Shown here one piece after another: positions 1 through 39,893 of a stretch of DNA of 64,000 nucleotides. Source of the stretch: an uncultured Candidatus Saccharibacteria bacterium (lineage in GTDB: Bacteria > Patescibacteriota > Minisyncoccia > Phycocordibacterales > DATGWK01); contig CAYRZH010000002.1 of NCBI GenBank assembly GCA_964428845.1, positions 6,924-70,923 on the forward strand, read 5' to 3'. Below the pieces are notes generated by a model, which saw only the letters and a list, made by a program, of their open reading frames with translations, made no database searches and was not told where the DNA came from. The position numbers were made by a program, and so were the translations under genes. Each line of letters opens with the position of its first letter. Position 1 is the stretch's first letter.

Positions 1-120
1 TTTTGCGAGCGTCGTATACCAGCTGGCAACAGATGGTGTGGTAAACACTGAGCCGATAATGCCGGCAAACTCGGAAATTGCGATGGCAACGATGAGTTTG
101 AGGGTGTGATTGGTTTTCAT
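1..120 (-). CDS. TspO/MBR (tryptophan-rich sensory protein) family protein, N-terminal 40 aa only; gene runs off the window start
   Basis: Reverse complement of 1-120 translates without stops as MKTNHTLKLIVAIAISEFAGIIGSVFTTPSVASWYTTLAK; the WY..L.KP N-terminus is typical of TspO. Its ATG (120-118) overlaps the mscL stop in an ATGA arrangement. Confidence 0.5.
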   Translation of the reverse strand, partial: MKTNHTLKLIVAIAISEFAGIIGSVFTTPSVASWYTTLAK

Positions 121-530
121 GAGTTATTTTTCAATATAACTTGAGTACAGTGAGAACAACGTCTGGCGTCAATTGGGATCTCGCTTAGACATTCCTTACA
201 TTTTTTCGTTGTCGGATCTGTCGGAGCCTCCTTTCGTGATCTTGAAATAAGGTAATTCATCGGTTTAATGACGAAGAAAAAGATTGCGGTCGCAACCAAG
301 ACGAATGAAATGAGGACATTAGCAAAGTGACCATACATAAACTGACTACCGTTTAGCGTAAATGAAAGTCCCCCGAAGTCTGGTACTTTTGCTATTGCGC
401 CGATAAACGGCGTGAGAATGTCTGTTACCAATGCGTTAACTACTGTTCCAAAAGAGGCGCCGATGATAACGCCCACCGCCAGATCGACAACATTGCCCCT
501 TAGTAGAAATTGCTTAAATTCTTTTAACAT
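117..530 (-). CDS. mscL: large-conductance mechanosensitive channel MscL with C-terminal CxxC..CxxC zinc-ribbon tail
   Basis: N-terminus MLKEFKQFLLRGNVVDLAVGVIIGASFG is near-identical to the canonical MscL N-terminus; two TM helices; C-terminus CKECLSEIPIDARRCSHC. Confidence 0.85.
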   Translation of the reverse strand: MLKEFKQFLLRGNVVDLAVGVIIGASFGTVVNALVTDILTPFIGAIAKVPDFGGLSFTLNGSQFMYGHFANVLISFVLVATAIFFFVIKPMNYLISRSRKEAPTDPTTKKCKECLSEIPIDARRCSHCTQVILKNNS

Positions 531-2983: not shown

Positions 2984-3021
2984 AAAAAAACGGCCAGAAT
3001 CCTCCTTAGAGAATCCTGGCC
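2984..3021 (-). terminator. intrinsic terminator (serves the minus-strand gene 3041-4051)
   Basis: GGCCAG..CTGGCC hairpin followed by a T-run on the minus strand. Confidence 0.5.
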
Positions 3022-3040
3022 GCACTGCTTCGATGATGAA

Positions 3041-4051
3041 CTACATGACTGATACGTTCTCGTCCGGATGGAATGCCTTCCGCAGTTCAGGCCTCTGATT
3101 CCACATCCGCACCGCCGTTCTCACAAGGTCGCGAATCTGGGGAAGCGTTCCCTGCAGACCGAGGACGTACATATGATGTGAGTCTGGCCGAAGCTGGAAC
3201 GTCACGTAGCTGACGGCGTCTTGGAGCATAACGCGGTCGTAGCCGCACATTTCAGCCGCCAGCACCTTCACCGACCCGAACTGGCCGGACGCTCCGCGAA
3301 ACTTTGCGCCGTCCAGGACTGCCTTCATTCCATTGAAGTAGACTTCATCCTGGAAGGTGATGCACAGCTCGTAGAGCATTCCGCCGATAGTGACGATGTC
3401 GTGATCCTTGTCAATCGCGCCGCGCGTCATGATCGAGGTGTCGAGCCAGAGGTTCTCATAGACATTGGCGCCTGTCTGGAGCTCCTCGAATCCCTGATCT
3501 GGTTCGCCGTAGATCGTAACGTGGACTGCACGATCACGGAATTCGCCGAATCTGGAATCAGGCGCGTCGTCGTTCTTCGTATCTGTGTACCACGCTTCGA
3601 CGGTGACCCAGACGATGTACTTCGTTTCCTTCCACACCGGATCGGAGTGCAGATAACCCGTGCCGTGCGCATTGAGGCGTTTGGACCTCCAGAGCACCCA
3701 CCAGGCATAAATCTCATCGAGACTTCGTTTGCGTTCCGCAGAGTTGCGCGGAAAGTTGAGCTGGTTGAGGATCTCGCCATCGGCGTCGATAGCGAATGCG
3801 TACTCGCCTCGGCGCATGACCTGATCCTTACGGTTGCCTTTGAGATGGAAGATACACGAGGAATCGCCGAGACCAACGTTGTCCGCTCTGCGATACATGA
3901 GATCTCCGTCCGCTTTTTCCACTCTGATGGTCAGATCATCAACCTTGACCCCGCGCTCGCCGTCGAAAGGTTCCATGCGGGACGCGATTATTCTTTCCAC
4001 GAAGGGATATTGCTTAAGCAACTCGCGGTTCTTCGAGGCCGTCGGCTTCAT
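3041..4051 (-). CDS. hypothetical protein (336 aa), GC-rich accessory gene
   Basis: ATG at 4051 preceded by an AGGAGGG RBS; about 58% GC against a ~40% background; no family recognised. Confidence 0.6.
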   Translation of the reverse strand: MKPTASKNRELLKQYPFVERIIASRMEPFDGERGVKVDDLTIRVEKADGDLMYRRADNVGLGDSSCIFHLKGNRKDQVMRRGEYAFAIDADGEILNQLNFPRNSAERKRSLDEIYAWWVLWRSKRLNAHGTGYLHSDPVWKETKYIVWVTVEAWYTDTKNDDAPDSRFGEFRDRAVHVTIYGEPDQGFEELQTGANVYENLWLDTSIMTRGAIDKDHDIVTIGGMLYELCITFQDEVYFNGMKAVLDGAKFRGASGQFGSVKVLAAEMCGYDRVMLQDAVSYVTFQLRPDSHHMYVLGLQGTLPQIRDLVRTAVRMWNQRPELRKAFHPDENVSVM

Positions 4052-4124
4052 TTCGTGCCCTCCTACGTTCCGTAGTTTTCAAATTGTTGGCGTTCCGCCA
4101 ACAGTCGGCCTACATCGGACGACA

Positions 4125-4157
4125 ATATAAAATATAATGATTTCTTCAATCCGTCAA
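4125..4157 (-). promoter_or_regulatory. sigma70-like promoter for gene 3041-4051
   Basis: Minus-sense TTGACG - ~17 nt - TATTTT, about 70 nt upstream of the ATG. Confidence 0.4.
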
Positions 4158-4196
4158 TTCTTTTTGAAGGTTCTTAACCGTACGAAAAAATGGAGA

Positions 4197-4245
4197 GGGA
4201 ATTGGGTTATTTGAAGTTTATTTAGTATAAAAGAAAACCGCCCCC
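4197..4245 (-). repeat. conserved ~50-bp inter-cassette repeat unit, copy A
   Basis: GGGAATTGGGTTATTTGAAGTTTATTTAGTATAAAAGAAAACCGCCCC is about 85% identical to copy B at 4827-4876; its 3' end forms one arm of a terminator hairpin. Confidence 0.6.
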
Positions 4246-4268
4246 AACGGCTTTCCGTTGGGGGCGGG
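4231..4268 (-). terminator. intrinsic terminator for gene 4276-4665
   Basis: CCGCCCCCAACGG ctttc CCGTTGGGGGCGG hairpin followed by TTTTCTTTT on the minus strand. Confidence 0.7.
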
Positions 4269-4275
4269 ACTGATT

Positions 4276-4665
4276 TCAGCTTGCGAGCTGGACCTCGGAC
4301 GCACTGATGATCGGCGCCCAGGCTTCTTCAAGGGTTGGGAAGGCCTTGAGCGCCACTTCCACAAACCCATGAAGATTTCGATACGCGAACTCGACATCGT
4401 TGCTGTAGAGAGGAACCTGCCTCTCGCTCGAATAGACGAGGGTTGCGAACCCTGTCAGCTTCCAGCATTCGACGGCTCTCGAATGCTTCATTACCCTGAA
4501 GGTCCATCTGCACGACTCAGATTCGACCGTGGCTTCGATTCCATCCTTAGAAGAAAAGGGGACCATGCCGAAGGTCATTCTGATGACCTGATCGATCTCC
4601 GACCGCATCCTGTCGATGTTCCGTGAGCCCCGAATCAGACGAGCCGCGGTCTCCGTGCTGTTCAT
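4276..4665 (-). CDS. hypothetical protein (129 aa), GC-rich
   Basis: ATG at 4665 preceded by AAAAGGAG; no family recognised. Confidence 0.55.
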   Translation of the reverse strand: MNSTETAARLIRGSRNIDRMRSEIDQVIRMTFGMVPFSSKDGIEATVESESCRWTFRVMKHSRAVECWKLTGFATLVYSSERQVPLYSNDVEFAYRNLHGFVEVALKAFPTLEEAWAPIISASEVQLAS

Positions 4666-4736
4666 TGCAAACTCCTTTTCTCAAAGGGCCCTCTCGGGCG
4701 GGTGATGAGCATCTCTGCTCGGGAACTAACTTTCCA

Positions 4737-4765
4737 TATATTACACTAAATAACAAAAAAAGTCA
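4737..4765 (-). promoter_or_regulatory. sigma70-like promoter for gene 4276-4665
   Basis: Minus-sense TTGACT - 17 nt - TAATAT. Confidence 0.5.
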
Positions 4766-4826
4766 AGTAATCGTAATGGTTCAATACCTTGGAAAATTTT
4801 AGAACTCTAGATGGGGGAAACGGCTA

Positions 4827-4876
4827 GGGGATTAAGTTATTTGAAATTTAGTTTTGTATAAAAGAAAGACCGCCCC
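4827..4876 (-). repeat. conserved ~50-bp inter-cassette repeat unit, copy B
   Basis: GGGGATTAAGTTATTTGAAATTTAGTTTTGTATAAAAGAAAGACCGCCCC. Confidence 0.6.
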
Positions 4877-4894
4877 GTGCACCAGGGCGGTCTT
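4868..4894 (-). terminator. intrinsic terminator for gene 4908-5315
   Basis: GACCGCCC cgtgcacca GGGCGGTC hairpin followed by a T-run on the minus strand. Confidence 0.7.
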
Positions 4895-4907
4895 GGTTCT
4901 TGTGGAG

Positions 4908-5315
4908 TTAGCTTTTGAGAGAAAGCCACTCCTTCTCCCCGAGTTGTCGTACACGCCCTTCGATGAGCGTCGCAATCATGCTGATCTCTTCCGCGGTTAC
5001 CCACGGTAGACCATCACTTTTGCGTCGACAAACCTGGGATATGTAGAAGCATCGTCGCACGAGCTCCTCCACAAGATCCAGGCGGTCTGATTGTTCGCAA
5101 GAGCCACGCGCCGTGACACTTGCCGCACTTGCGAGGAATCTCTCGACGTAGCCGAGATATTCATCGGGTGCCACGAGGCAGTGGAGAGGGTCAACCTCAT
5201 TCCATGCCTCGTAAACGATCGGACCGATTGGCCCCCATTTCTCCAGAAGTGCAGCCGAGATTCGACTCTCGTACGCACAGCTGAAAGAGGGAAGACCGGG
5301 GTTGTGGCTCGTCAT
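4908..5315 (-). CDS. hypothetical protein (135 aa), GC-rich
   Basis: The internal ATG at 5315 (MTSHNPGL...) is preceded by an AAAGGA RBS; the longer ORF-track start lacks an RBS. Confidence 0.5.
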   Translation of the reverse strand: MTSHNPGLPSFSCAYESRISAALLEKWGPIGPIVYEAWNEVDPLHCLVAPDEYLGYVERFLASAASVTARGSCEQSDRLDLVEELVRRCFYISQVCRRKSDGLPWVTAEEISMIATLIEGRVRQLGEKEWLSLKS

Positions 5316-5510
5316 GGTTTTTCCTTTGTGGTTCGGGGTTTCCGACACAATTAAGAAAAAACCTAACCTAACACTGCATGGCCCCACTTGGGTTCGCCAT
5401 GATGTGCCACAACCTTTCTGGTGTTTACCCTAACATATCGATAGTTTTTTGTCAAATAGTGCTCTGACTCGTGGGCAAGTTCAGAATTCTTAATTGGGTA
5501 AATATAGAAA

Positions 5511-5555
5511 GGGAATTGAGCCGATTAGGTTTTACATAAAACACAAAACCCGCCC
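5511..5555 (-). repeat. diverged third copy of the inter-cassette repeat unit, copy C
   Basis: GGGAATTGAGCCGATTAGGTTTTACATAAAACACAAAACCCGCCC shares both ends and the TTT..ATAAAA core with copies A and B. Confidence 0.4.
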
Positions 5556-5590
5556 TTCCAACGAGTCTTGTGACTAATTGAGAGTGCGGG

Positions 5591-5836
5591 TCATTCTTGC
5601 GCCATTTTCAGAAGCACCCCTTTCGCCCCGTTGAGCACCCGTATCTGGGTTTCGACACACGGTTCTAACGATTGAGGGACTCCCCCTGACAAAAGTCGCT
5701 GCAGGGTATTGACGTTCTGGCAGAAAATACAAAGGCCTTGAAGGAACATGGCAACAGTCTCAGCCGTTGGCATTTCACCCCTCAGGATCTTCCTTTGTAA
5801 CCCAGCGGCGATAACCAGCATGTCTTCGTCATTCAA
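5591..5836 (-). CDS. hypothetical small protein (~77-81 aa); start uncertain (TTG at 5836 or ATG at 5821)
   Basis: GC-rich ORF co-oriented with the three cassettes; an AGGAGG lies about 30 nt upstream. Confidence 0.35.
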   Translation of the reverse strand: MNDEDMLVIAAGLQRKILRGEMPTAETVAMFLQGLCIFCQNVNTLQRLLSGGVPQSLEPCVETQIRVLNGAKGVLLKMAQE

Positions 5837-6062
5837 ATGTGCAGTTAAAGGTGTGATTTGAACACCTCCTTTCTGTGTGAAATACTATCACAATAAAGAA
5901 TATGTGTCAACTACGCTAATGGCTCCGCACATTTCATCTTTACCGAACTGTATAAAATCTATCCACTAGTTAAATCGAGTATGGAAAGAATGAGAAGGTT
6001 GAGTTTCTTTGATATATCAATGAAATTTTCACAAAGTGCACATGTTCGTTTTTAGCAAAGGA

Positions 6063-6093
6063 AAAGGGTTCGCATATTGCGAACCCTTTAAAA
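6063..6093. terminator. bidirectional intrinsic terminator
   Basis: AAAGGGTTCGCA tat TGCGAACCCTTT perfect hairpin flanked by A/T runs. Confidence 0.6.
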
Positions 6094-6919: not shown

Positions 6920-7264
6920 TTAGAACCCATTTAGCCAGTATCTTTTGATTATCGGCAAAGATAGAGTAGAGAGAATGTAACCTAAAACTGGGACAAAGGC
7001 TTTTAGCCAAAAGTTGTTTTCATGAATCATTACGAGCCAAATAGCGGCGACAATGTATGTGATTATCGAAATCGTGAATCTTCGAACCCAACTTACTTCC
7101 CAAGCCTTGTCATTTTCTACACGATTGTTACGCTCTCTAATTGTCTTAAGCTCAGTTTCTATTTCTTGTGTATTCATGAAAGTAATAATAGCAAACATAA
7201 AAAGAAAACCACCGGATGAGTACCCGGCGGTCTTTTGAGTGGCGTTTTTAGGTAACCACTTCAC
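6920..7264 (-). CDS. hypothetical small membrane protein
   Basis: Three predicted TM segments; no family recognised. Confidence 0.4.
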   Translation of the reverse strand: MKWLPKNATQKTAGYSSGGFLFMFAIITFMNTQEIETELKTIRERNNRVENDKAWEVSWVRRFTISIITYIVAAIWLVMIHENNFWLKAFVPVLGYILSTLSLPIIKRYWLNGF

Positions 7265-7832
7265 TACCTCTTATTTCTTCAGCTCCTTTTCTGTGAAGTG
7301 CGGCGGCGGCGATGAGGCCACAGAGGATCACACAGACACCTGGGTAGAATCGCTCTTCGATCAACCAACCCTTGCCTCCCATTAGTGAGAGGAAGTTGGC
7401 GACGACGTACCCAATGTATATGTACCCGGTCTGCTTGTCGGGCTTCCGCCATGATTCCACGATCTGCGGTACCCCTGCGATGAAAACCGCAAGAGTGCTC
7501 GCAACGATCGCTGTTCTCGATCCGCTCATTTTCCAAACCACCAAACAAATGATGACCAGTGCGAGTATGAGCCACTCGAACCAGGTCCATTTGAATAGTT
7601 TTTTGTAAAGAAGCGAAGCAATCACGAACGACCCGCCAATCACATAGAAGACGAGCAAGAGAAAGTTTCCTCTCTCAATGATCGTGCTCACCATTGCTAT
7701 GGCGTCCAAGAAGACCCAAAGCATCCAAGCTGCGACGCTTTGCTTTACTTCACCTCTCATGATGCCTCGGATAAGCGGGACGTATAGCAGGAAGGCAAGC
7801 AGACCGCCCGCCCAGGCCAAAGTGCTCTCCAT
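7248..7832 (-). CDS. hypothetical polytopic membrane protein (194 aa), GC-enriched
   Basis: About 6 hydrophobic helices; roughly 52% GC. Confidence 0.5.
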   Translation of the reverse strand: MESTLAWAGGLLAFLLYVPLIRGIMRGEVKQSVAAWMLWVFLDAIAMVSTIIERGNFLLLVFYVIGGSFVIASLLYKKLFKWTWFEWLILALVIICLVVWKMSGSRTAIVASTLAVFIAGVPQIVESWRKPDKQTGYIYIGYVVANFLSLMGGKGWLIEERFYPGVCVILCGLIAAAALHRKGAEEIRGSEVVT

Positions 7833-7924
7833 TGGGCGATCTCCTTTATTTGAACTGTTTTGGGAAGGTGCTAAAAAACTCTAGCTATATAGTAGCATTA
7901 TTTTTTAAACGAGTCAAGTTTCAG

Positions 7925-8242
7925 CTCCGCGGGTAGGATTCGAACCTACGACCAATCGCTTACATTTGCTCCAAGCTTTCGCTCGGTATGGACTATATCA
8001 TCATCCTTCACCTGGTGGGTGGTTTGGATGTGGGGCGCTTCGTTCTGCTCTTGCAGAACTACTCTCTTGCGAGATAGTCTCTGAACCTTTCCTTTGATAA
8101 TTAATCTGGGGACTTGGCTGCTGATTGCCCACGGCTTTACGTTTGGGTTTCCAGCAATTCACCTCATTTTTCAGCCCGTATTCCTACGGGAAGCTGCGTA
8201 ATTTCGACACAGGCGATCGCTCTACCACTGAGCTACCGCGGA
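7925..8242 (-). tRNA. tRNA-Asn(GUU) interrupted by a group I intron (exons 8242-8209 and 7962-7925)
   Basis: The 5' exon reads TCCGCGG TA GCTC AGTGGTA GAGC G ATCGC CUGU. The 3' exon reads UAA GCGAT TGGTC GTAGG TTCGAAT CCTAC CCGCGGA G. This gives a perfect 7-bp acceptor stem, a CUGUUAA anticodon loop and G73 discriminator (fits Asn); CCA is not encoded. Confidence 0.75.
7963..8208 (-). ncRNA. group I self-splicing intron (246 nt) in the tRNA-Asn anticodon loop
   Basis: The conserved core elements occur in the right order: P AATTGCTGGAAA (8159-8148), Q AATCAGCAGCC (8126-8116), R GTTCAGAGACTATC (8086-8073) and S GATGATATAGTCC (8002-7990). The 5' splice site follows a U, the intron ends in G, and a GCAG guide sequence can pair with exon CUGU (U.G). 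Confidence 0.75.
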
Positions 8243-8310
8243 ATATTATATTTTCTACAAACTTCAAAGAACGCTGAACATCATAGCAAAAACTCCTCTA
8301 TAATAAAAGC

Positions 8311-8544
8311 ATGTACATCAAAATCCGCGCCGTACCATCGGCTAAAAAAGAGCTGTTCGAGCAAGTCTCCAAAGACCACTTTAAGATTACTGTGCGCGAG
8401 AAGCCGAAGAACAACCAGGCCAATCAGCGCATCGTCGCTCTCGTGGCTTCCCACTTCAAGATCGCTTCAGGGAAGGTGAGAATTATTTCAGGCCATCATT
8501 CGCCAAGCAAAATTCTTTCAGTCGATATTGAAACAGTCGGTTAA
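8311..8544 (+). CDS. DUF167 / YggU-family protein
   Basis: MYIKIRAVPSAKKE....ITVREKPKNNQANQRIVALVASHF...GKVRIISG matches the YggU pattern. Confidence 0.65.
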   Translation: MYIKIRAVPSAKKELFEQVSKDHFKITVREKPKNNQANQRIVALVASHFKIASGKVRIISGHHSPSKILSVDIETVG

Positions 8545-12550: not shown

Positions 12551-12670
12551 AAGACAAAATCCGCACAAGCTACCTCGCCTCGCACGGATATTTTTCTGCT
12601 GAAAAATTCCTCGTGCTCGCGCCGTCGCGCTCGCAAGGCTTCGTCTCGGTACTTGTGCGGATTTTGTCTT
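12551..12670. repeat. 120-bp element with 19-bp perfect terminal inverted repeats (AAGACAAAATCCGCACAAG / CTTGTGCGGATTTTGTCTT) around a GC-rich core
   Basis: Seen directly; the right arm overlaps the murA stop codon. It sits between murA and priA on the minus strand and may be a terminator structure or a MITE. Confidence 0.5.
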
Positions 12671-14180
12671 ATAAATCTCTCAATATCTGAATCTTTGCAC
12701 CAAGGCTATTGAGTCGCTTGATGATATCTTCGTAGCCACGATTGATACTGTAAATATTTCGTAGCACCGAGGTGCCCGAAGCCGCGAGCATACCGATAAG
12801 GATAATTGCGGCGGGGCGAAGGGCTGGCGGGCAAATGACCTCTGCCGCCTTGAGCTTTGTCGGACCGGTGATATAGATGCGATGTGGGTCGGCAAGTAGT
12901 GTGTCGGCGCCGAGTTTGTCGAGCTCTTTGTAGTGTATGGCGCGTTTCTCATAGACCCAGTCGTGTATAAAGGTGGTACCTTTGGCTTGGGTGGCGATCA
13001 CCGCGAAAAATGGAAGATTGTCTATGTTTAGTCCTGGATATGGTCGTGCCTCGATCTTTTCCTCGAGAGCCACGAGTTCGCTTGGTGATGTCTTGATATC
13101 TACTAGATTGGTACGTTCATTTAAGGCTTTATAACTTTTTATAATTTTATATTTAAAACCCATCTTCTCGAGTTTGAGCAGTTCGAGTTCTAGAAAATCA
13201 ATAGGACAGCGGCGAATGGTTATGCTCGACTTGGTCACTGCTGCCACGGCGATAAAAAACATGGACTCGATCGGATCCTCGCTCACATAATACGTGATCG
13301 GCTGGTCTATCACTTCTTTACCATGGATAGTTATTGTCGTTGTGCCTATACCTTCTATCTTCACGCCCAATTTTTCTAAAAAAAAGCAGACTTCTTGGCC
13401 CATGTAGTTGGCAGAAGCAAACTTGATGACAGTTTTTCCCGGGATCTTGGCGGCGGCGATGATGGTATTTTCGGTAACTGTGTCACCAGACTCGTAGAGC
13501 ACGATATAGTTGGGTTTGAGTGCATCTCTCTTCACCTCATAATGTTTGGAGGTGGTTTTTATATCCACCCCAAACTTTTCTAGGGCAAAAACATGAGGCT
13601 GTATAGTCCTAGAACCAAGTCTACACCCGCCAGCCTGGGGGAGTTTAAAACTTTTCGAGTTATGTATTAGGGAGCCGATAAGCATGATAATGCTTCTAGT
13701 TTTCTCTGCGGCTTCTGTGTTTATCTTTTTTATATCAATATTTTTAGGTGGTTTTATCTCGAGATCAGCACCACTCCATTTTGCCGATACGCCCATGCTC
13801 TCGAAGACCTCTATCATCCTGCGAACTTCTTCTATGCGAGGAACATTTTTTAAGATTGTTTTGTTTTTGTTTAAAAGGGAAGCGGCAAGAAGACCCATGG
13901 TGCCGTTTTTTGAAGTTTTTGTGACGATCTCGCCGGAAAGTTTTCTCCCGCCATCTATTTTTACATTTATTGCGCCACGAGAAATATTTAGAATATCCTT
14001 GTTCAACACAGAGCTGATCTTTGAGAGTGTCTCCGTGCTTAGGTTCTGCTCACCCTTCTCGATACGAGCAATGACACTTTGGGTTGTTCCGAGTGCTTTA
14101 CCAAACTCTTTCTGGGTGATACCACGCTCTTCTCGGAGGGTATGTATAAGTTTGCCGATATGTGCGAGCTGACTTTTCAT
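12669..14180 (-). CDS. murA: UDP-N-acetylglucosamine 1-carboxyvinyltransferase with an N-terminal XRE-type helix-turn-helix domain (HTH-MurA fusion)
   Basis: The N-terminal ~75 aa (LIHTLREERGITQKEFGKALGTTQSVIARIEKGEQNLSTETLSKISSVL) is an XRE HTH. It continues in one frame into a MurA N-terminus (KNGTMGLLAASLL..NVP) and a full MurA body. Confidence 0.8.
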   Translation of the reverse strand: MKSQLAHIGKLIHTLREERGITQKEFGKALGTTQSVIARIEKGEQNLSTETLSKISSVLNKDILNISRGAINVKIDGGRKLSGEIVTKTSKNGTMGLLAASLLNKNKTILKNVPRIEEVRRMIEVFESMGVSAKWSGADLEIKPPKNIDIKKINTEAAEKTRSIIMLIGSLIHNSKSFKLPQAGGCRLGSRTIQPHVFALEKFGVDIKTTSKHYEVKRDALKPNYIVLYESGDTVTENTIIAAAKIPGKTVIKFASANYMGQEVCFFLEKLGVKIEGIGTTTITIHGKEVIDQPITYYVSEDPIESMFFIAVAAVTKSSITIRRCPIDFLELELLKLEKMGFKYKIIKSYKALNERTNLVDIKTSPSELVALEEKIEARPYPGLNIDNLPFFAVIATQAKGTTFIHDWVYEKRAIHYKELDKLGADTLLADPHRIYITGPTKLKAAEVICPPALRPAAIILIGMLAASGTSVLRNIYSINRGYEDIIKRLNSLGAKIQILRDL

Positions 14181-14285
14181 ATTTAAAATCAGCATAGCAT
14201 ATATGATATGTTTTGTCTTGTCATTGATGATCTGAATTGTGGATAATGATAAGTAATCTTTTCTAGGCCAAACTTTTTTCATAAA

Positions 14286-18876: not shown

Positions 18877-19476
18877 CTACTTTCTACTGCGCCTCTTCTT
18901 CTTCGACTTCGTCGAGGTGTCCTTCCAGCCGAGCCGGCCGGTGACTTTGTAGAGATTGAGCGGGGCGCCCTTCTTGCCGTCGCGGGGTTGCTTGCCGACA
19001 ACGACGATGCCATCGAGCAGACGCGACAAGATGAGAGAAACATGGTTCGGCATAAACGCCACGGACATTCTCGACAGCTTATCGGTCACATCGTGGCGAG
19101 TGAAACGCTCCAGACCACGCATACTCTCGACTGCCTGGAGGACATGGGGCTTCAGGTCGGTCATGGACAGCTCGTTGCCGTTGCGTGGGGTGGCTCTGCG
19201 CCGGCGCCTCTTGGTCTTTGCCGGGAGCGAAGTCCTCGTTTTGGTCAGGACTGCCGGCGAAGAGTTTACCGAGTTCGCGTGCCCGGAAGACTTGCTGGAT
19301 GGGTTTGTTCCATCGAGCCGCGCGCTCACAAGCTCCAGGCCGAACGACGCACAGAGGCTATCGAAGATCCTCTGTAGCTCGGCCATGTGCCTCTGATACT
19401 TGTCCTCGTATTCCCGACATCGCCTCTCGAATTCAGCCACCAACGCCGCCTGCAGAGCCCGTCTCTTCATAGGCAT
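18877..19476 (-). CDS. hypothetical basic protein with C-terminal winged-helix-like region (199 aa), GC-rich
   Basis: ATG at 19476 preceded by AAGGAG; Arg/Lys-rich; the C-terminal segment LSRMSVAFMPNHVSLILSRLLDGIVVVG..KGAPLNLYKVTG resembles a wHTH; about 60% GC. Confidence 0.55.
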   Translation of the reverse strand: MPMKRRALQAALVAEFERRCREYEDKYQRHMAELQRIFDSLCASFGLELVSARLDGTNPSSKSSGHANSVNSSPAVLTKTRTSLPAKTKRRRRRATPRNGNELSMTDLKPHVLQAVESMRGLERFTRHDVTDKLSRMSVAFMPNHVSLILSRLLDGIVVVGKQPRDGKKGAPLNLYKVTGRLGWKDTSTKSKKKRRSRK

Positions 19477-30505: not shown

Positions 30506-31066
30506 TCAGCAGGCCGCGAGCGATCCGCTGCGGGGGGGCTGGGGACCAACCCCGACCGCTTCCGTACCGACGGGTGGTCTGTTGTTGGCAACGATGGATC
30601 CCGGTAGACCCTCAACATACGCCAGTGATTCGGTAGTAGTCCGAGTGACACCGGCGAAACCTCCCTGGAGCACCACTTTCGTGGTGACGATGTATCGGTA
30701 CTTCCCAGGTGTCAGATTCAGGAAAACCTCGTCCTCCCGACCATGAATGGAGATATCCCGTAGCGGCCGCACGACGCGCAACCGGCCGTTTTGTACGACG
30801 AGCATGTACTCAACATCGTCGTGACGAAAGCCCCCCCTCACCTCGAGGATGTCGCCTGGCTCGAACACCTTACTGATGAACATGGGGCAGCCGATCCTGG
30901 CCTTGTAGGAATCTCGATCTCGCACAGTGGCGGCGATAAAGGAACACACAATGATGAGCACGATGAGCACCAGGACAATTGCGGCTGCCTCCCCAAAGGT
31001 GAACCAGGATCCTCCCGAGCTCATCTGGTCCGACGTCTGCGCCAACACGAGACTGAAATTGAACAC
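30506..31066 (-). CDS. hypothetical membrane-anchored protein (186 aa), GC-rich paralog of 29888-30301
   Basis: GTG at 31066 with an AAAGGAG RBS; TM helix; the motif LTPGKYRYIV parallels LEPGTYFIY of the neighbouring gene; about 58% GC. Confidence 0.5.
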   Translation of the reverse strand: MFNFSLVLAQTSDQMSSGGSWFTFGEAAAIVLVLIVLIIVCSFIAATVRDRDSYKARIGCPMFISKVFEPGDILEVRGGFRHDDVEYMLVVQNGRLRVVRPLRDISIHGREDEVFLNLTPGKYRYIVTTKVVLQGGFAGVTRTTTESLAYVEGLPGSIVANNRPPVGTEAVGVGPQPPRSGSLAAC

Positions 31067-37200: not shown

Positions 37201-37779
37201 TCAGATGCGGCGGAAGAAGCTCAAGAAGTTGGTGATTCTCCTCACCACACTACGCTGGCTCAATCTCCCACGGAGTTCCCTGATCGTTGCCAACGCTCCA
37301 CCCAACTGCTGTTGGGTTTGCATGAGCTCGTTTTCGAGTTGCTTACGAGATTTGCCGTTCTGGCGTCCCTCGTAGCTCTCCTCGGGACGGATCGCGCCGG
37401 TCTTCACCATGTGCAGAATCGCCCTGAGGTCTTCCATGTTGTCGGCGATGATCCTGAGCGAGTACACCGGCAATTCGCGCCTGGAGTTTCCGCGTTCTCC
37501 CGGCGTGAGCTCGCATACTGCACTCCCATGCCGATAGACGCCGGATTCTCTGGGGCCCATTCGTGGGATTTCCTCGTGGCACGAGATTCTTACCACCAGA
37601 TTCTTCAGCGCGTCGGGGATGTCGTTGTCTTCTCTCCATGAGATATAAGGGGTAGAATCTCTATCGTACACATACTCACCAAAGATAGTTGTCTGATCTG
37701 CTGTGCCGTTCCTGCCGGGCTGACTCTTGTACTCGGGGAGCTCACGAACCTCGCCGCTTAGGTACACGTTGATGGACAT
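37201..37779 (-). CDS. hypothetical protein (192 aa), GC-rich, C-terminal coiled-coil
   Basis: The internal ATG at 37779 has an AAAAGGAG RBS; about 58% GC; no family recognised. Confidence 0.5.
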   Translation of the reverse strand: MSINVYLSGEVRELPEYKSQPGRNGTADQTTIFGEYVYDRDSTPYISWREDNDIPDALKNLVVRISCHEEIPRMGPRESGVYRHGSAVCELTPGERGNSRRELPVYSLRIIADNMEDLRAILHMVKTGAIRPEESYEGRQNGKSRKQLENELMQTQQQLGGALATIRELRGRLSQRSVVRRITNFLSFFRRI

Positions 37780-38089
37780 GACTTTCTCCTTTTGTCGCTC
37801 TGGAATCGGTAGGGTTACTGGCCCAGTCCGTTCCACAAGTCGATCTGGTATCATGGTAGCATATACTATTACTTATGTCAATAGTTTTATATTTTCCAAA
37901 TAACCCCTGAAATTAGGCTTTCTAGCTTCTGTAAAATAAAATCTTTCCGAGGCTAGGGTGGCGAGTAGACAAATATCTATAGTAGGTAGAGAATTTGGGT
38001 AAAGGTCGGTCGTCACTACTCCTCTTTAAGATACCCGCAGTTGCGGGCCAAAAAACGACGGTAAAGATTAGGATTAACAACAAAAGATT

Positions 38090-39521: not shown

Positions 39522-39893
39522 TCAAACAACCCCCCGCATTCTCTCCTCGCGAGTAAGTCCAGGCCAGGGGAGGGACTTAGGTACTCGCCGCCTCTTGGGC
39601 GTGGCACTACTTGTCACCCTTGACGCACGAACTACGCCCATCTTCTCTCGCTCGCGCAAAAGCTCACGCTTCTGTGCTGCCCGTTTGCCGAAGAACTTGC
39701 CCATCTCGGCCATACAGGCGGCGATCGTTTCCGGCGACCGAATGTTATGGTCTCGGATGGTTCGGAAAAGAAGGGCCCTGAAATCTGGACGTTCCTTCTT
39801 TCCGCTCCGATGAAGGCTCATCTCGGCGGCATATCGCGTTGAAGCCTTGTCGATAAGCATCCGCACCACGGGGTCAACTGGTCTTTCTTCCAC
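39522..39893 (-). CDS. hypothetical basic protein (123 aa), GC-rich
   Basis: GTG start with an AAAGGAG RBS; Arg/Lys-rich C-terminus. Confidence 0.4.
   Translation of the reverse strand: MEERPVDPVVRMLIDKASTRYAAEMSLHRSGKKERPDFRALLFRTIRDHNIRSPETIAACMAEMGKFFGKRAAQKRELLREREKMGVVRASRVTSSATPKRRRVPKSLPWPGLTREERMRGVV

Follow-up and report, generated by a model that had tools for sequence, protein, structure and literature searches.

To our knowledge, the ways in which bacteria of the Candidate Phyla Radiation (CPR) gain and express genes are poorly understood, and these bacteria combine tiny genomes and dependence on host cells with many genes of unknown function. The stretch of DNA analyzed here, 64,000 nucleotides (nt) from an uncultured Candidatus Saccharibacteria bacterium (contig CAYRZH010000002.1 of assembly GCA_964428845.1), raises this question in a concrete form. 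We refer to the whole stretch as the window, and coordinates are window positions unless another locus, designated by L and a number, is named. Four small minus-strand genes lie here in one orientation (g1 to g4, encoding 336, 129, 135, and 81 amino acids [aa]), each with its own predicted promoter, leader, and terminator, and a conserved unit recurs between them. Is this an operon, a platform of cassettes, a remnant of a phage, or a row of modules that move independently?

The answer to which we give roughly even confidence is a short array of moron-like autonomous modules on a CPR chromosome, separated by terminator-promoter units that resemble the early-promoter stem-loops (PeSLs) of T4-like phages. 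Each module would consist of a sigma70-type promoter, a structured leader, a coding sequence (CDS), and an intrinsic terminator. The unit would end the transcript of one gene and start that of the next, leaving each gene insulated and self-sufficient, and the shared unit sequence would provide homology at which unrelated genes could be gained, lost, or swapped, as has been proposed for PeSLs. The genes and their signals, with G+C content (GC) and GC at third codon positions (GC3), are as follows; all promoter, terminator, and module calls were made in silico.

3041-4051, minus strand: g1, 336 aa; GC 0.562, GC3 0.71
4276-4665, minus strand: g2, 129 aa, orphan; GC 0.556, GC3 0.70
4908-5315, minus strand: g3, 135 aa counted from ATG; GC 0.556, GC3 0.59
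5591-5836, minus strand: g4, 81 aa from TTG, possibly 88 aa from ATC at 5857, orphan; GC 0.512, GC3 0.57
4129-4157, minus strand: predicted g1 promoter, TTGACG-17-TATTTT, scan call
4738-4766, minus strand: predicted g2 promoter, TTGACT-17-TAATAT, scan call
5427-5455, minus strand: predicted g3 promoter, TTGACA-17-TAGGGT, weak -10 after TGT, read from the sequence, fails the scan rule
5882-5910, minus strand: predicted g4 promoter, TTGACA-17-TAGTAT, TG upstream, scan call
2990-3023, minus strand: predicted g1 terminator, 15-pair hairpin then TTTTTTT, scan call
4238-4267, minus strand: predicted g2 terminator, 13-pair hairpin with 11 G-C pairs, then T run, scan call
4866-4894, minus strand: predicted g3 terminator, hairpin plus T run, scan call, conserved in L010
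5542-5572, minus strand: predicted g4 terminator, hairpin plus T run, scan call

The original prediction had described four co-oriented small genes, each with a promoter and a terminator, and this description was borne out by the open reading frames (ORFs), by the scan and, for the g3 promoter, by L010, a locus with a g3 homologue in which the corresponding position reads TTGACA-17-TAGTAT, with a better -10 box. The position of the g1 promoter is near consensus in 24 other loci. All four predicted terminators lie downstream of a stop codon, and terminator-like sites are enriched in the scan (9 versus 4.3 +/- 2.0 expected). With separate signals for every gene, and with homology to other genomes limited to the g1 and g3 modules (see below), the preference for separate modules over an operon also held. 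The start of g4 is uncertain: GGAGG at 5869-5865 lies 7 nt ahead of the in-frame ATC at 5857 and 28 nt ahead of the TTG, and the ATC appears the better spaced of the two.

In composition, the four genes stand apart from the other genes of the window, whose GC3 is mostly 0.35-0.48 (~0.42), compared with 0.57-0.71 for g1 to g4. The GC of 56-58% that had been claimed for all four fits g1 to g3 and is too high for g4. None of the four matched a family in Pfam, PHROGs (weak matches only, E >= 0.2), PADLOC, or NCBIfam, and they differ in length and have no detectable protein similarity to one another. The statement that they belong to no recognizable family therefore stands for these databases and fails in that g1 has more than 160 unannotated homologues and g3 has six.

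The intergenic unit was first described as a conserved stretch of ~50 bp with two close copies and a diverged third, which agrees with what we found: 4197-4246 and 4827-4877 are identical at 43 of 52 positions (83%), and the third copy (5509-5556) is 59-63% identical. This 50-nt stretch is the terminator-proximal 5' part of a longer element of ~90-130 nt that spans the terminator to the -35 box.

4160-4252 (50-nt part 4197-4246), minus strand: unit copy between g2 and g1; nhmmer match to the g3-g2 copy at E=8e-5 to 1e-4
4788-4871 (50-nt part 4827-4877), minus strand: unit copy between g3 and g2; matched by the cross-genome profile at E=0.023 before inclusion
5460-5550, minus strand: unit copy between g4 and g3, the best preserved at full length, TTTTATG..AATTCCCT..AGAATTCTGAAC..AGAGCAC..TTGACA
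5902-6089, minus strand: second unit subtype, bounded by the GNAT terminator and the g4 -35 box

Pairwise nhmmer comparison gave E=1e-4 (330-kb search space) for the first two intergenic regions, and a 24-nt core pattern had two occurrences where 0.00 were expected. Along the unit, the terminator hairpin and T run are followed by TTTTATAC, then by a pyrimidine-rich stretch (AATTCCCT..CCCA), then by the AGTTCTGAA box ~25 nt upstream of the -35 box, and finally by GGAGCAC and TTGACA. Across genomes, the conserved columns are TTTTATA(C/T)A, TTCC, ATACT, CCCCA.TC.A.AGTTCT(G/A)A, and GGAGCA, followed by the -35 box. A reading of the box as a palindrome, GTTCnGAAC, was dropped, its right half not being conserved. 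RNAalifold placed no pairs in a consensus of 15 copies, and comparison with Rfam gave nothing at the gathering score, the sub-threshold matches being due to the terminators. The suggestion that the unit might be a small RNA was thus not supported, and because consensus RNA structure and an Rfam match are both lacking, the unit would act as DNA or would simply be inherited sequence. No inverted repeats bounding the units were found, which sets them apart from miniature inverted-repeat transposable elements (MITEs) and repetitive extragenic palindromic (REP)-like elements. Profile matches at 23.2, 31.8, 29.2, and 15.1 kb of the window were dismissed, as they lie inside coding sequence.

The unit is not confined to the window. 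A profile built from L025 alone, a locus with a g1 homologue, recovered the window copy at 5550-5458 with E=8e-3 and a copy in L016, another g1 locus, with E=4.5e-3. When the profile was iterated, it found six to seven copies in L025, two in L016, seven to nine in L011 (which holds a g3 homologue), two in L039, and one in L040, and it matched the window copy at 5460-5550 with E=1e-11 to 1e-13; L039 and L040 had been found by scanning metagenomes for a pattern. A profile from L011 alone ranked the window units best, yet at E=1.6-2.8. All copies share the orientation of the adjoining genes. The search for further copies in relatives, which had been proposed as a check, thus yielded a unit family in at least five other CPR contigs with different cargo, in keeping with the option of a mobile promoter-terminator module that had been raised at the outset.

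Two of these loci carry arrays longer than that of the window. L011 has at least 10 co-oriented small genes, 9 units of ~90 nt directly after terminators with 88-96% mutual identity, and 12 strong plus-strand promoters. In L025, the array comprises 10 or more small genes, with ~8 post-terminator units by eye; 6 of its plus-strand promoters agree with the consensus at 11-12 of 12 positions, and terminator-like sites number 19 versus 6.0 expected. In L016, two units flank g1 and one further small gene, and the single unit of L040 precedes an ordinary CsoR-like repressor gene. Among 80 array ORFs in 8 loci, the only recurring families are g1 and g3, so that one unit family accompanies largely unrelated cargo. 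The second unit subtype provides a direct comparison between two arrays: the window spacer between the GNAT gene and g4 matches L011 2981-3173 (E=1e-9), which is the spacer from csp to the g3 homologue and lies directly upstream of the latter, and the homology stops just past TTGACACA, at the -35 box. The two loci thus share the spacer; g4 and one unit come next in the window but not in L011, and then g3, an arrangement that fits exchange at the units.

Two side observations concern these loci. Short contigs bearing g1 or g3 often stop at or beside a terminator or unit (L016 at 4840-4875; L010 inside the T run), a possible sign that the assembly broke at a repeated element. Array promoters outside the window often lie inside long inverted repeats that reach from the -35 box to past the -10 box, with arms of up to 15-17 bp; each differs in sequence, they are equaled in 0-3 of 300 shuffles, and they are missing from the four promoters of the window.

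L025, 4323-4364, 5507-5548, 6014-6055, and 2143-2180: promoter inverted repeats
L039: promoter inverted repeat
L040, 278-302: promoter inverted repeat
L011, 3165-3205: promoter inverted repeat

For g1 and g3, homology between genomes ends with the module. Compared with all fetched loci, the window matched in only two places, 4109-3039 and 5411-4860. The g1 modules of L016 and L018 are 91% identical over 1192 nt, from -114 relative to the ATG to ~+52 past the stop codon, and the two loci have no other match over 10-11 kb; further pairs with homology limited to the g1 module are L001/L003 (84%), L021/L024 (91%), and L016/L017 (86%). The g3 module is 85% identical to that of L010 from the unit block (TCAAYTCCMTTTCTAT) through promoter, leader, CDS, and terminator, and the L010 neighbors, a haloacid dehalogenase (HAD) hydrolase and a tRNA gene, are unlike those in the window. 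In L010, the g3 promoter is kept and the AGTTCTGAA box is missing. The moron-like layout that had been suggested for the locus is consistent with these module-bounded homologies as well as with the structural definition of a moron.

The g1 family itself comprises more than 160 homologues with 49-81% identity; the named ones are all from Patescibacteria, none is annotated, and none has a Pfam domain. Among the GTDB species genomes, g1 was found at 24 loci, in CPR lineages save for a few under other phyla, which we judged to be mislabeled. The neighbors of the homologues vary by genome, and g2 to g4 are missing there. Structure prediction, which had been recommended for the four proteins, was informative for g1 (AlphaFold2 predicted local distance difference test [pLDDT] 94, predicted template modeling score [pTM] 0.87) and unusable for g3 (pLDDT 56, too poor for a fold search). 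The g1 model has no neighbor in the Protein Data Bank (PDB) by Foldseek (best E 1e-2, template modeling score [TM] 0.13) and none among the viral structures of BFVD, and a profile of the g1 alignment found no match among PDB sequences.

The original prediction had also treated the four genes as a single block of foreign GC, which did not hold up: priA-def-fmt is close to g1 not only here but also in three or four other lineages. The window, L001, L008/L023, and L034 all have g1 no more than a few kb from def-fmt, and some of them have priA or yfiA in the vicinity as well. This is too often for chance, and g1 is therefore probably an old resident near priA-def-fmt that has also been exchanged as a 1.2-kb promoter-to-terminator module, with g2 to g4 probably being lineage-specific additions upstream of it. 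In 23 of 25 genomes the gene has a higher GC than the rest of its locus, with a difference of up to 18 points, even with the priA-def-fmt linkage seen in several lineages; this could be attributed to the following: (i) repeated transfer from GC-rich donors or (ii) selection at synonymous sites. On the opposite strand within g1, an ORF of 284 aa (3221-4075, plus strand) is probably a by-product of the high GC3.

A structured 5' leader accompanies g1 at every locus searched.

4050-4139, minus strand: g1 5' leader, three hairpins, ~88 nt; 77 bits with covariance model R1

This leader is present in all 25 g1 loci, and besides the window it was noted directly upstream of the g1 homologues of L001, L003, L006, L008, and L013-L036. 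In the 25 sequences, CGGAACG forms the apex of two of its hairpins, P2 and P3, the latter of which is directly followed by the Shine-Dalgarno (SD) sequence AGGAGG. The fold covaries, with 89% of cells paired versus 19-45% with slid partners and compensatory changes in 17 of 19 pairs, values that none of 500 shuffles attained. R1 found one copy per locus (55-92 bits), directly upstream of g1, with no second copy elsewhere in the loci searched, the g2 leader included, and the leader matched no Rfam family. We consider it a candidate new cis-regulatory RNA, and its role would likely be translational control by an RNA-binding protein. GGA motifs stand in the hairpin loops and at the SD, as is typical of CsrA-type sites; no CsrA-like ORF was found in the 330 kb searched, which cover partial genomes.

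The other three genes have few homologues or none. A search of 5.8 billion protein clusters for relatives of g2 returned only g2 itself, and a search of 1.84 billion representatives with g4 gave only two spurious matches to repeat proteins. The g3 gene belongs to a small CPR family of six homologues with the motif EAWNxVDPLHCLxxPDEYLGY, and its homologues in L010, L011, and L012 have differing neighborhoods.

5316-5424, minus strand: g3 leader, strongly folded, SD and AUG paired

The predicted fold of the g3 leader (5290-5424) has a minimum free energy of -52.2 kcal/mol (z=-4.4; 0 of 200 shuffles equally stable), in which both translation signals are paired, the start-codon region with the 5' end and the SD with a U-rich stretch, and conservation between window and L010 is higher in the leader than in the CDS. 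The model suggests that translation of g3 is closed by default. An upstream ORF in this leader was rejected, as its frame is not conserved in L010. The hairpin of the g4 leader is no more stable than shuffles (z=-0.25).

Several observations weigh against an array of exchanged modules. Recombination at the units was not seen directly among the loci compared, which include no close strain pair with differing cargo, and the boundary of the L016/L018 g1 homology is at the promoter, ~50 nt downstream of the unit, which means that the unit is not always the breakpoint. The links by which window copies were first connected to other genomes are modest (E=8e-3 and 0.023), the third window copy is linked by a pairwise match only, and the exact core pattern is rare, with two true matches and one chance match in 241 million metagenome records. 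Convergence of terminators could account for part of the likeness among copies (a GC-rich stem, a T run, and an AT-rich tail), and the spacing from box to -35 is irregular in two of the window copies. Finally, promoter-like sites are not in excess in the region (3 versus a shuffle expectation of 4.4); the weight of the promoter calls lies in their placement ahead of each gene, and their count carries none.

The conservation of the unit could also be explained without any role in gene movement, if it were a cis-regulatory platform, i.e., the site of a CPR transcription factor or of RNA polymerase contacts above the -35 box, and the arrays were sets of co-regulated genes, for example for stress or host interaction, in which selection keeps the unit. 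This shared-regulon explanation is possible but, in our view, rather doubtful. It would account for the most conserved columns being AGTTCT(G/A)A, GGAGCA, and TTGACA, for the 24-28 nt between box and -35 in the well-preserved copies (L025, L039, L040, L011, and window 5460-5550), for a unit ahead of the ordinary CsoR-like repressor gene in L040, for conservation as DNA without an RNA fold, and for the ability of all four leaders to fold around the SD. However, conservation extends over ~60-110 nt including the terminator side, far beyond one operator, and within-genome copies that are 88-96% identical point to units having been copied or converted recently. Downstream of one L016 copy there is no co-oriented promoter or gene, the g3 promoter of L010 does without the box, and the right half of GTTCnGAAC is not conserved. 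That the AGTTCTGAA box, which a protein may bind, has a regulatory role would in any case be compatible with the modules being exchanged at the units. Repetition could also come from descent: a single ancestral module could have been duplicated in tandem, its coding parts diverging beyond recognition, and the decaying similarity of three tandem units (83%, then ~60%) looks like such a series. The four proteins are unlike in length and share no detectable similarity, though, g1 and g3 occur separately in other genomes, and the units are common to unrelated arrays elsewhere, all of which makes duplication highly improbable.

Mobility by other means has to be considered as well. The original prediction had mentioned integrons, and co-oriented repeats at the 3' ends of small orphan genes, high repeat identity within an array, a hairpin in each unit, and the end of contig L010 right after a terminator would all suit a platform on which the unit is the site of a dedicated recombinase encoded elsewhere. 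The cognate recombinase that had been called for did not appear, as no recombinase domain was detected in the ORFs scanned across 1-19 kb of the window; unlike an attC-type imperfect palindrome, the hairpin pairs perfectly in a short GC-rich stem that leads into a T run, nothing else in the unit folds, each gene has a promoter to itself, and boundaries vary (at the promoter in L016/L018, at the -35 box in window/L011). We therefore regard a site-specific cassette platform of this kind as quite unlikely. A remnant of a prophage or plasmid early region, with true phage morons or host-takeover genes, is unlikely too. Small orphans with consensus promoters and terminators are typical of phage early regions, the base composition is unlike that of the host, and L025 carries a putative NADAR-like gene (labeled by eye, without a tool), but a phage origin, which had also been considered, received no support from the databases: g1 is absent from IMG/VR and has no structural neighbor in BFVD, neither the DNA nor the proteins of the array matched INPHARED or PLSDB, PHROGs gave weak matches only, the flanks are housekeeping genes, and no structural, integrase, or replication genes were seen. 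These phage and plasmid negatives are moderate evidence, as CPR mobile elements are poorly sampled in such databases. A more speculative idea, which we also hold to be improbable, is that the unit serves as the recognition site for a CPR cassette-capture system not yet described, in which a recombinase or a competence-linked pathway would insert modules beside units; if true, the arrays would be chromosomal platforms for orphan genes, integron-like with self-expressing cassettes.

Beyond the array, the neighborhood encodes MscL, thioredoxins, DsbD, GNAT, HPF, Fmt, Def, PriA, MurA, MreB, HolB, RRF, and RseP. Elsewhere in the window there are isolated genes of high GC3 (0.60-0.76) without a Pfam match, each of which comes with a long leader, a terminator, and a near-consensus promoter of its own, and autonomous modules of the same kind thus appear to be scattered through this genome. 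Three further features are listed with them.

18877-19476, minus strand: isolated high-GC3 gene
30506-31066, minus strand: isolated high-GC3 gene
37201-37854, minus strand: isolated high-GC3 gene
39522-39893, minus strand: isolated high-GC3 gene
7248-7832, minus strand: isolated high-GC3 gene
~7905-8255, minus strand: tRNA gene split in the anticodon loop by a group I intron (Rfam 7970-8315, 82 bits); not called by ARAGORN; its identity may be His
12669-14282, minus strand: MurA-type enolpyruvyl transferase (Pfam EPSP_synthase) with an N-terminal Cro/C1-type helix-turn-helix (HTH_3, E=6e-17), an unusual fusion
117-530, minus strand: MscL with a C-terminal zinc-ribbon-like UPF0547 segment, under the Pfam cut-off

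The unit family and the shared 1.2-kb modules would provide a concrete, searchable signature of gene flux in CPR bacteria, and a mechanism of T4-like phages would be extended to cellular chromosomes. The g1 family, restricted to CPR and with a confidently predicted fold that has no known neighbor, and its 88-nt leader are findings in their own right and ready targets for experiments. A full-text literature search returned no account of such units in CPR genomes, which is a weak negative.

Among known systems, morons, which Hendrix and colleagues reportedly described as autonomous promoter-gene-terminator units in lambdoid prophages, offer the closest parallel to the modules. Here, too, a single gene with its own predicted promoter and terminator is set between unrelated genes, has a base composition unlike that of its neighbors, and has between-genome homology confined to the module. 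In contrast to morons, the modules lack a prophage context and are flanked by housekeeping genes, they are chained with a conserved repeat between them, and g1 is linked to priA-def-fmt in several lineages. Integron arrays, such as those with the Vibrio repeat VCR, share with the present locus co-oriented small orphans, each followed by a repeat of ~100 nt that is highly similar within the array and has a hairpin. They differ in that neither an IntI among the ORFs scanned at 1-19 kb nor the attC architecture (R''/L''/L'/R') was found here, and in that the present cassettes are self-promoted and terminated, while integron cassettes are mostly promoterless and driven from Pc. Putative mobile promoters, said to have been described by Matus-Garcia et al. 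in 2012 as homologous promoter regions before non-homologous genes, resemble the unit in that one upstream region precedes unrelated genes within and between genomes, whereas in the present unit the promoter region is continuous with the terminator before it, and such units form arrays with ORFan cargo.

For the units, the closest parallel is the PeSL. In T4-like phages, PeSLs are repeated intergenic motifs in which a strong sigma70-like promoter is joined to a terminator stem-loop; they lie mostly upstream of small ORFans in variable regions and have been proposed as exchange points between unrelated sequences (PMC2839356, PMC4122927). The present unit is likewise a repeated composite of promoter and terminator stem-loop, it stands ahead of ORFans (g2 and g4 are orphans, and 2 families are shared among the 80 array ORFs), and in L025, L039, and L040 a stem-loop spans the -35 to -10 region, as in the commonest PeSL subclass. 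In contrast, the stem-loop is upstream of the promoter in the window copies, and the units are longer (~90-130 nt), with the pyrimidine-rich stretch and the AGTTCTGAA box between terminator and promoter. Mini-circles and strain-pair indels are known for PeSLs, whereas the present units are known from sequence alone, and they reside among housekeeping genes of a cellular CPR chromosome rather than in a T4-like phage. Taken together, the modules fit the structural definition of morons without a phage, and the units fit that of PeSLs in a cellular chromosome.

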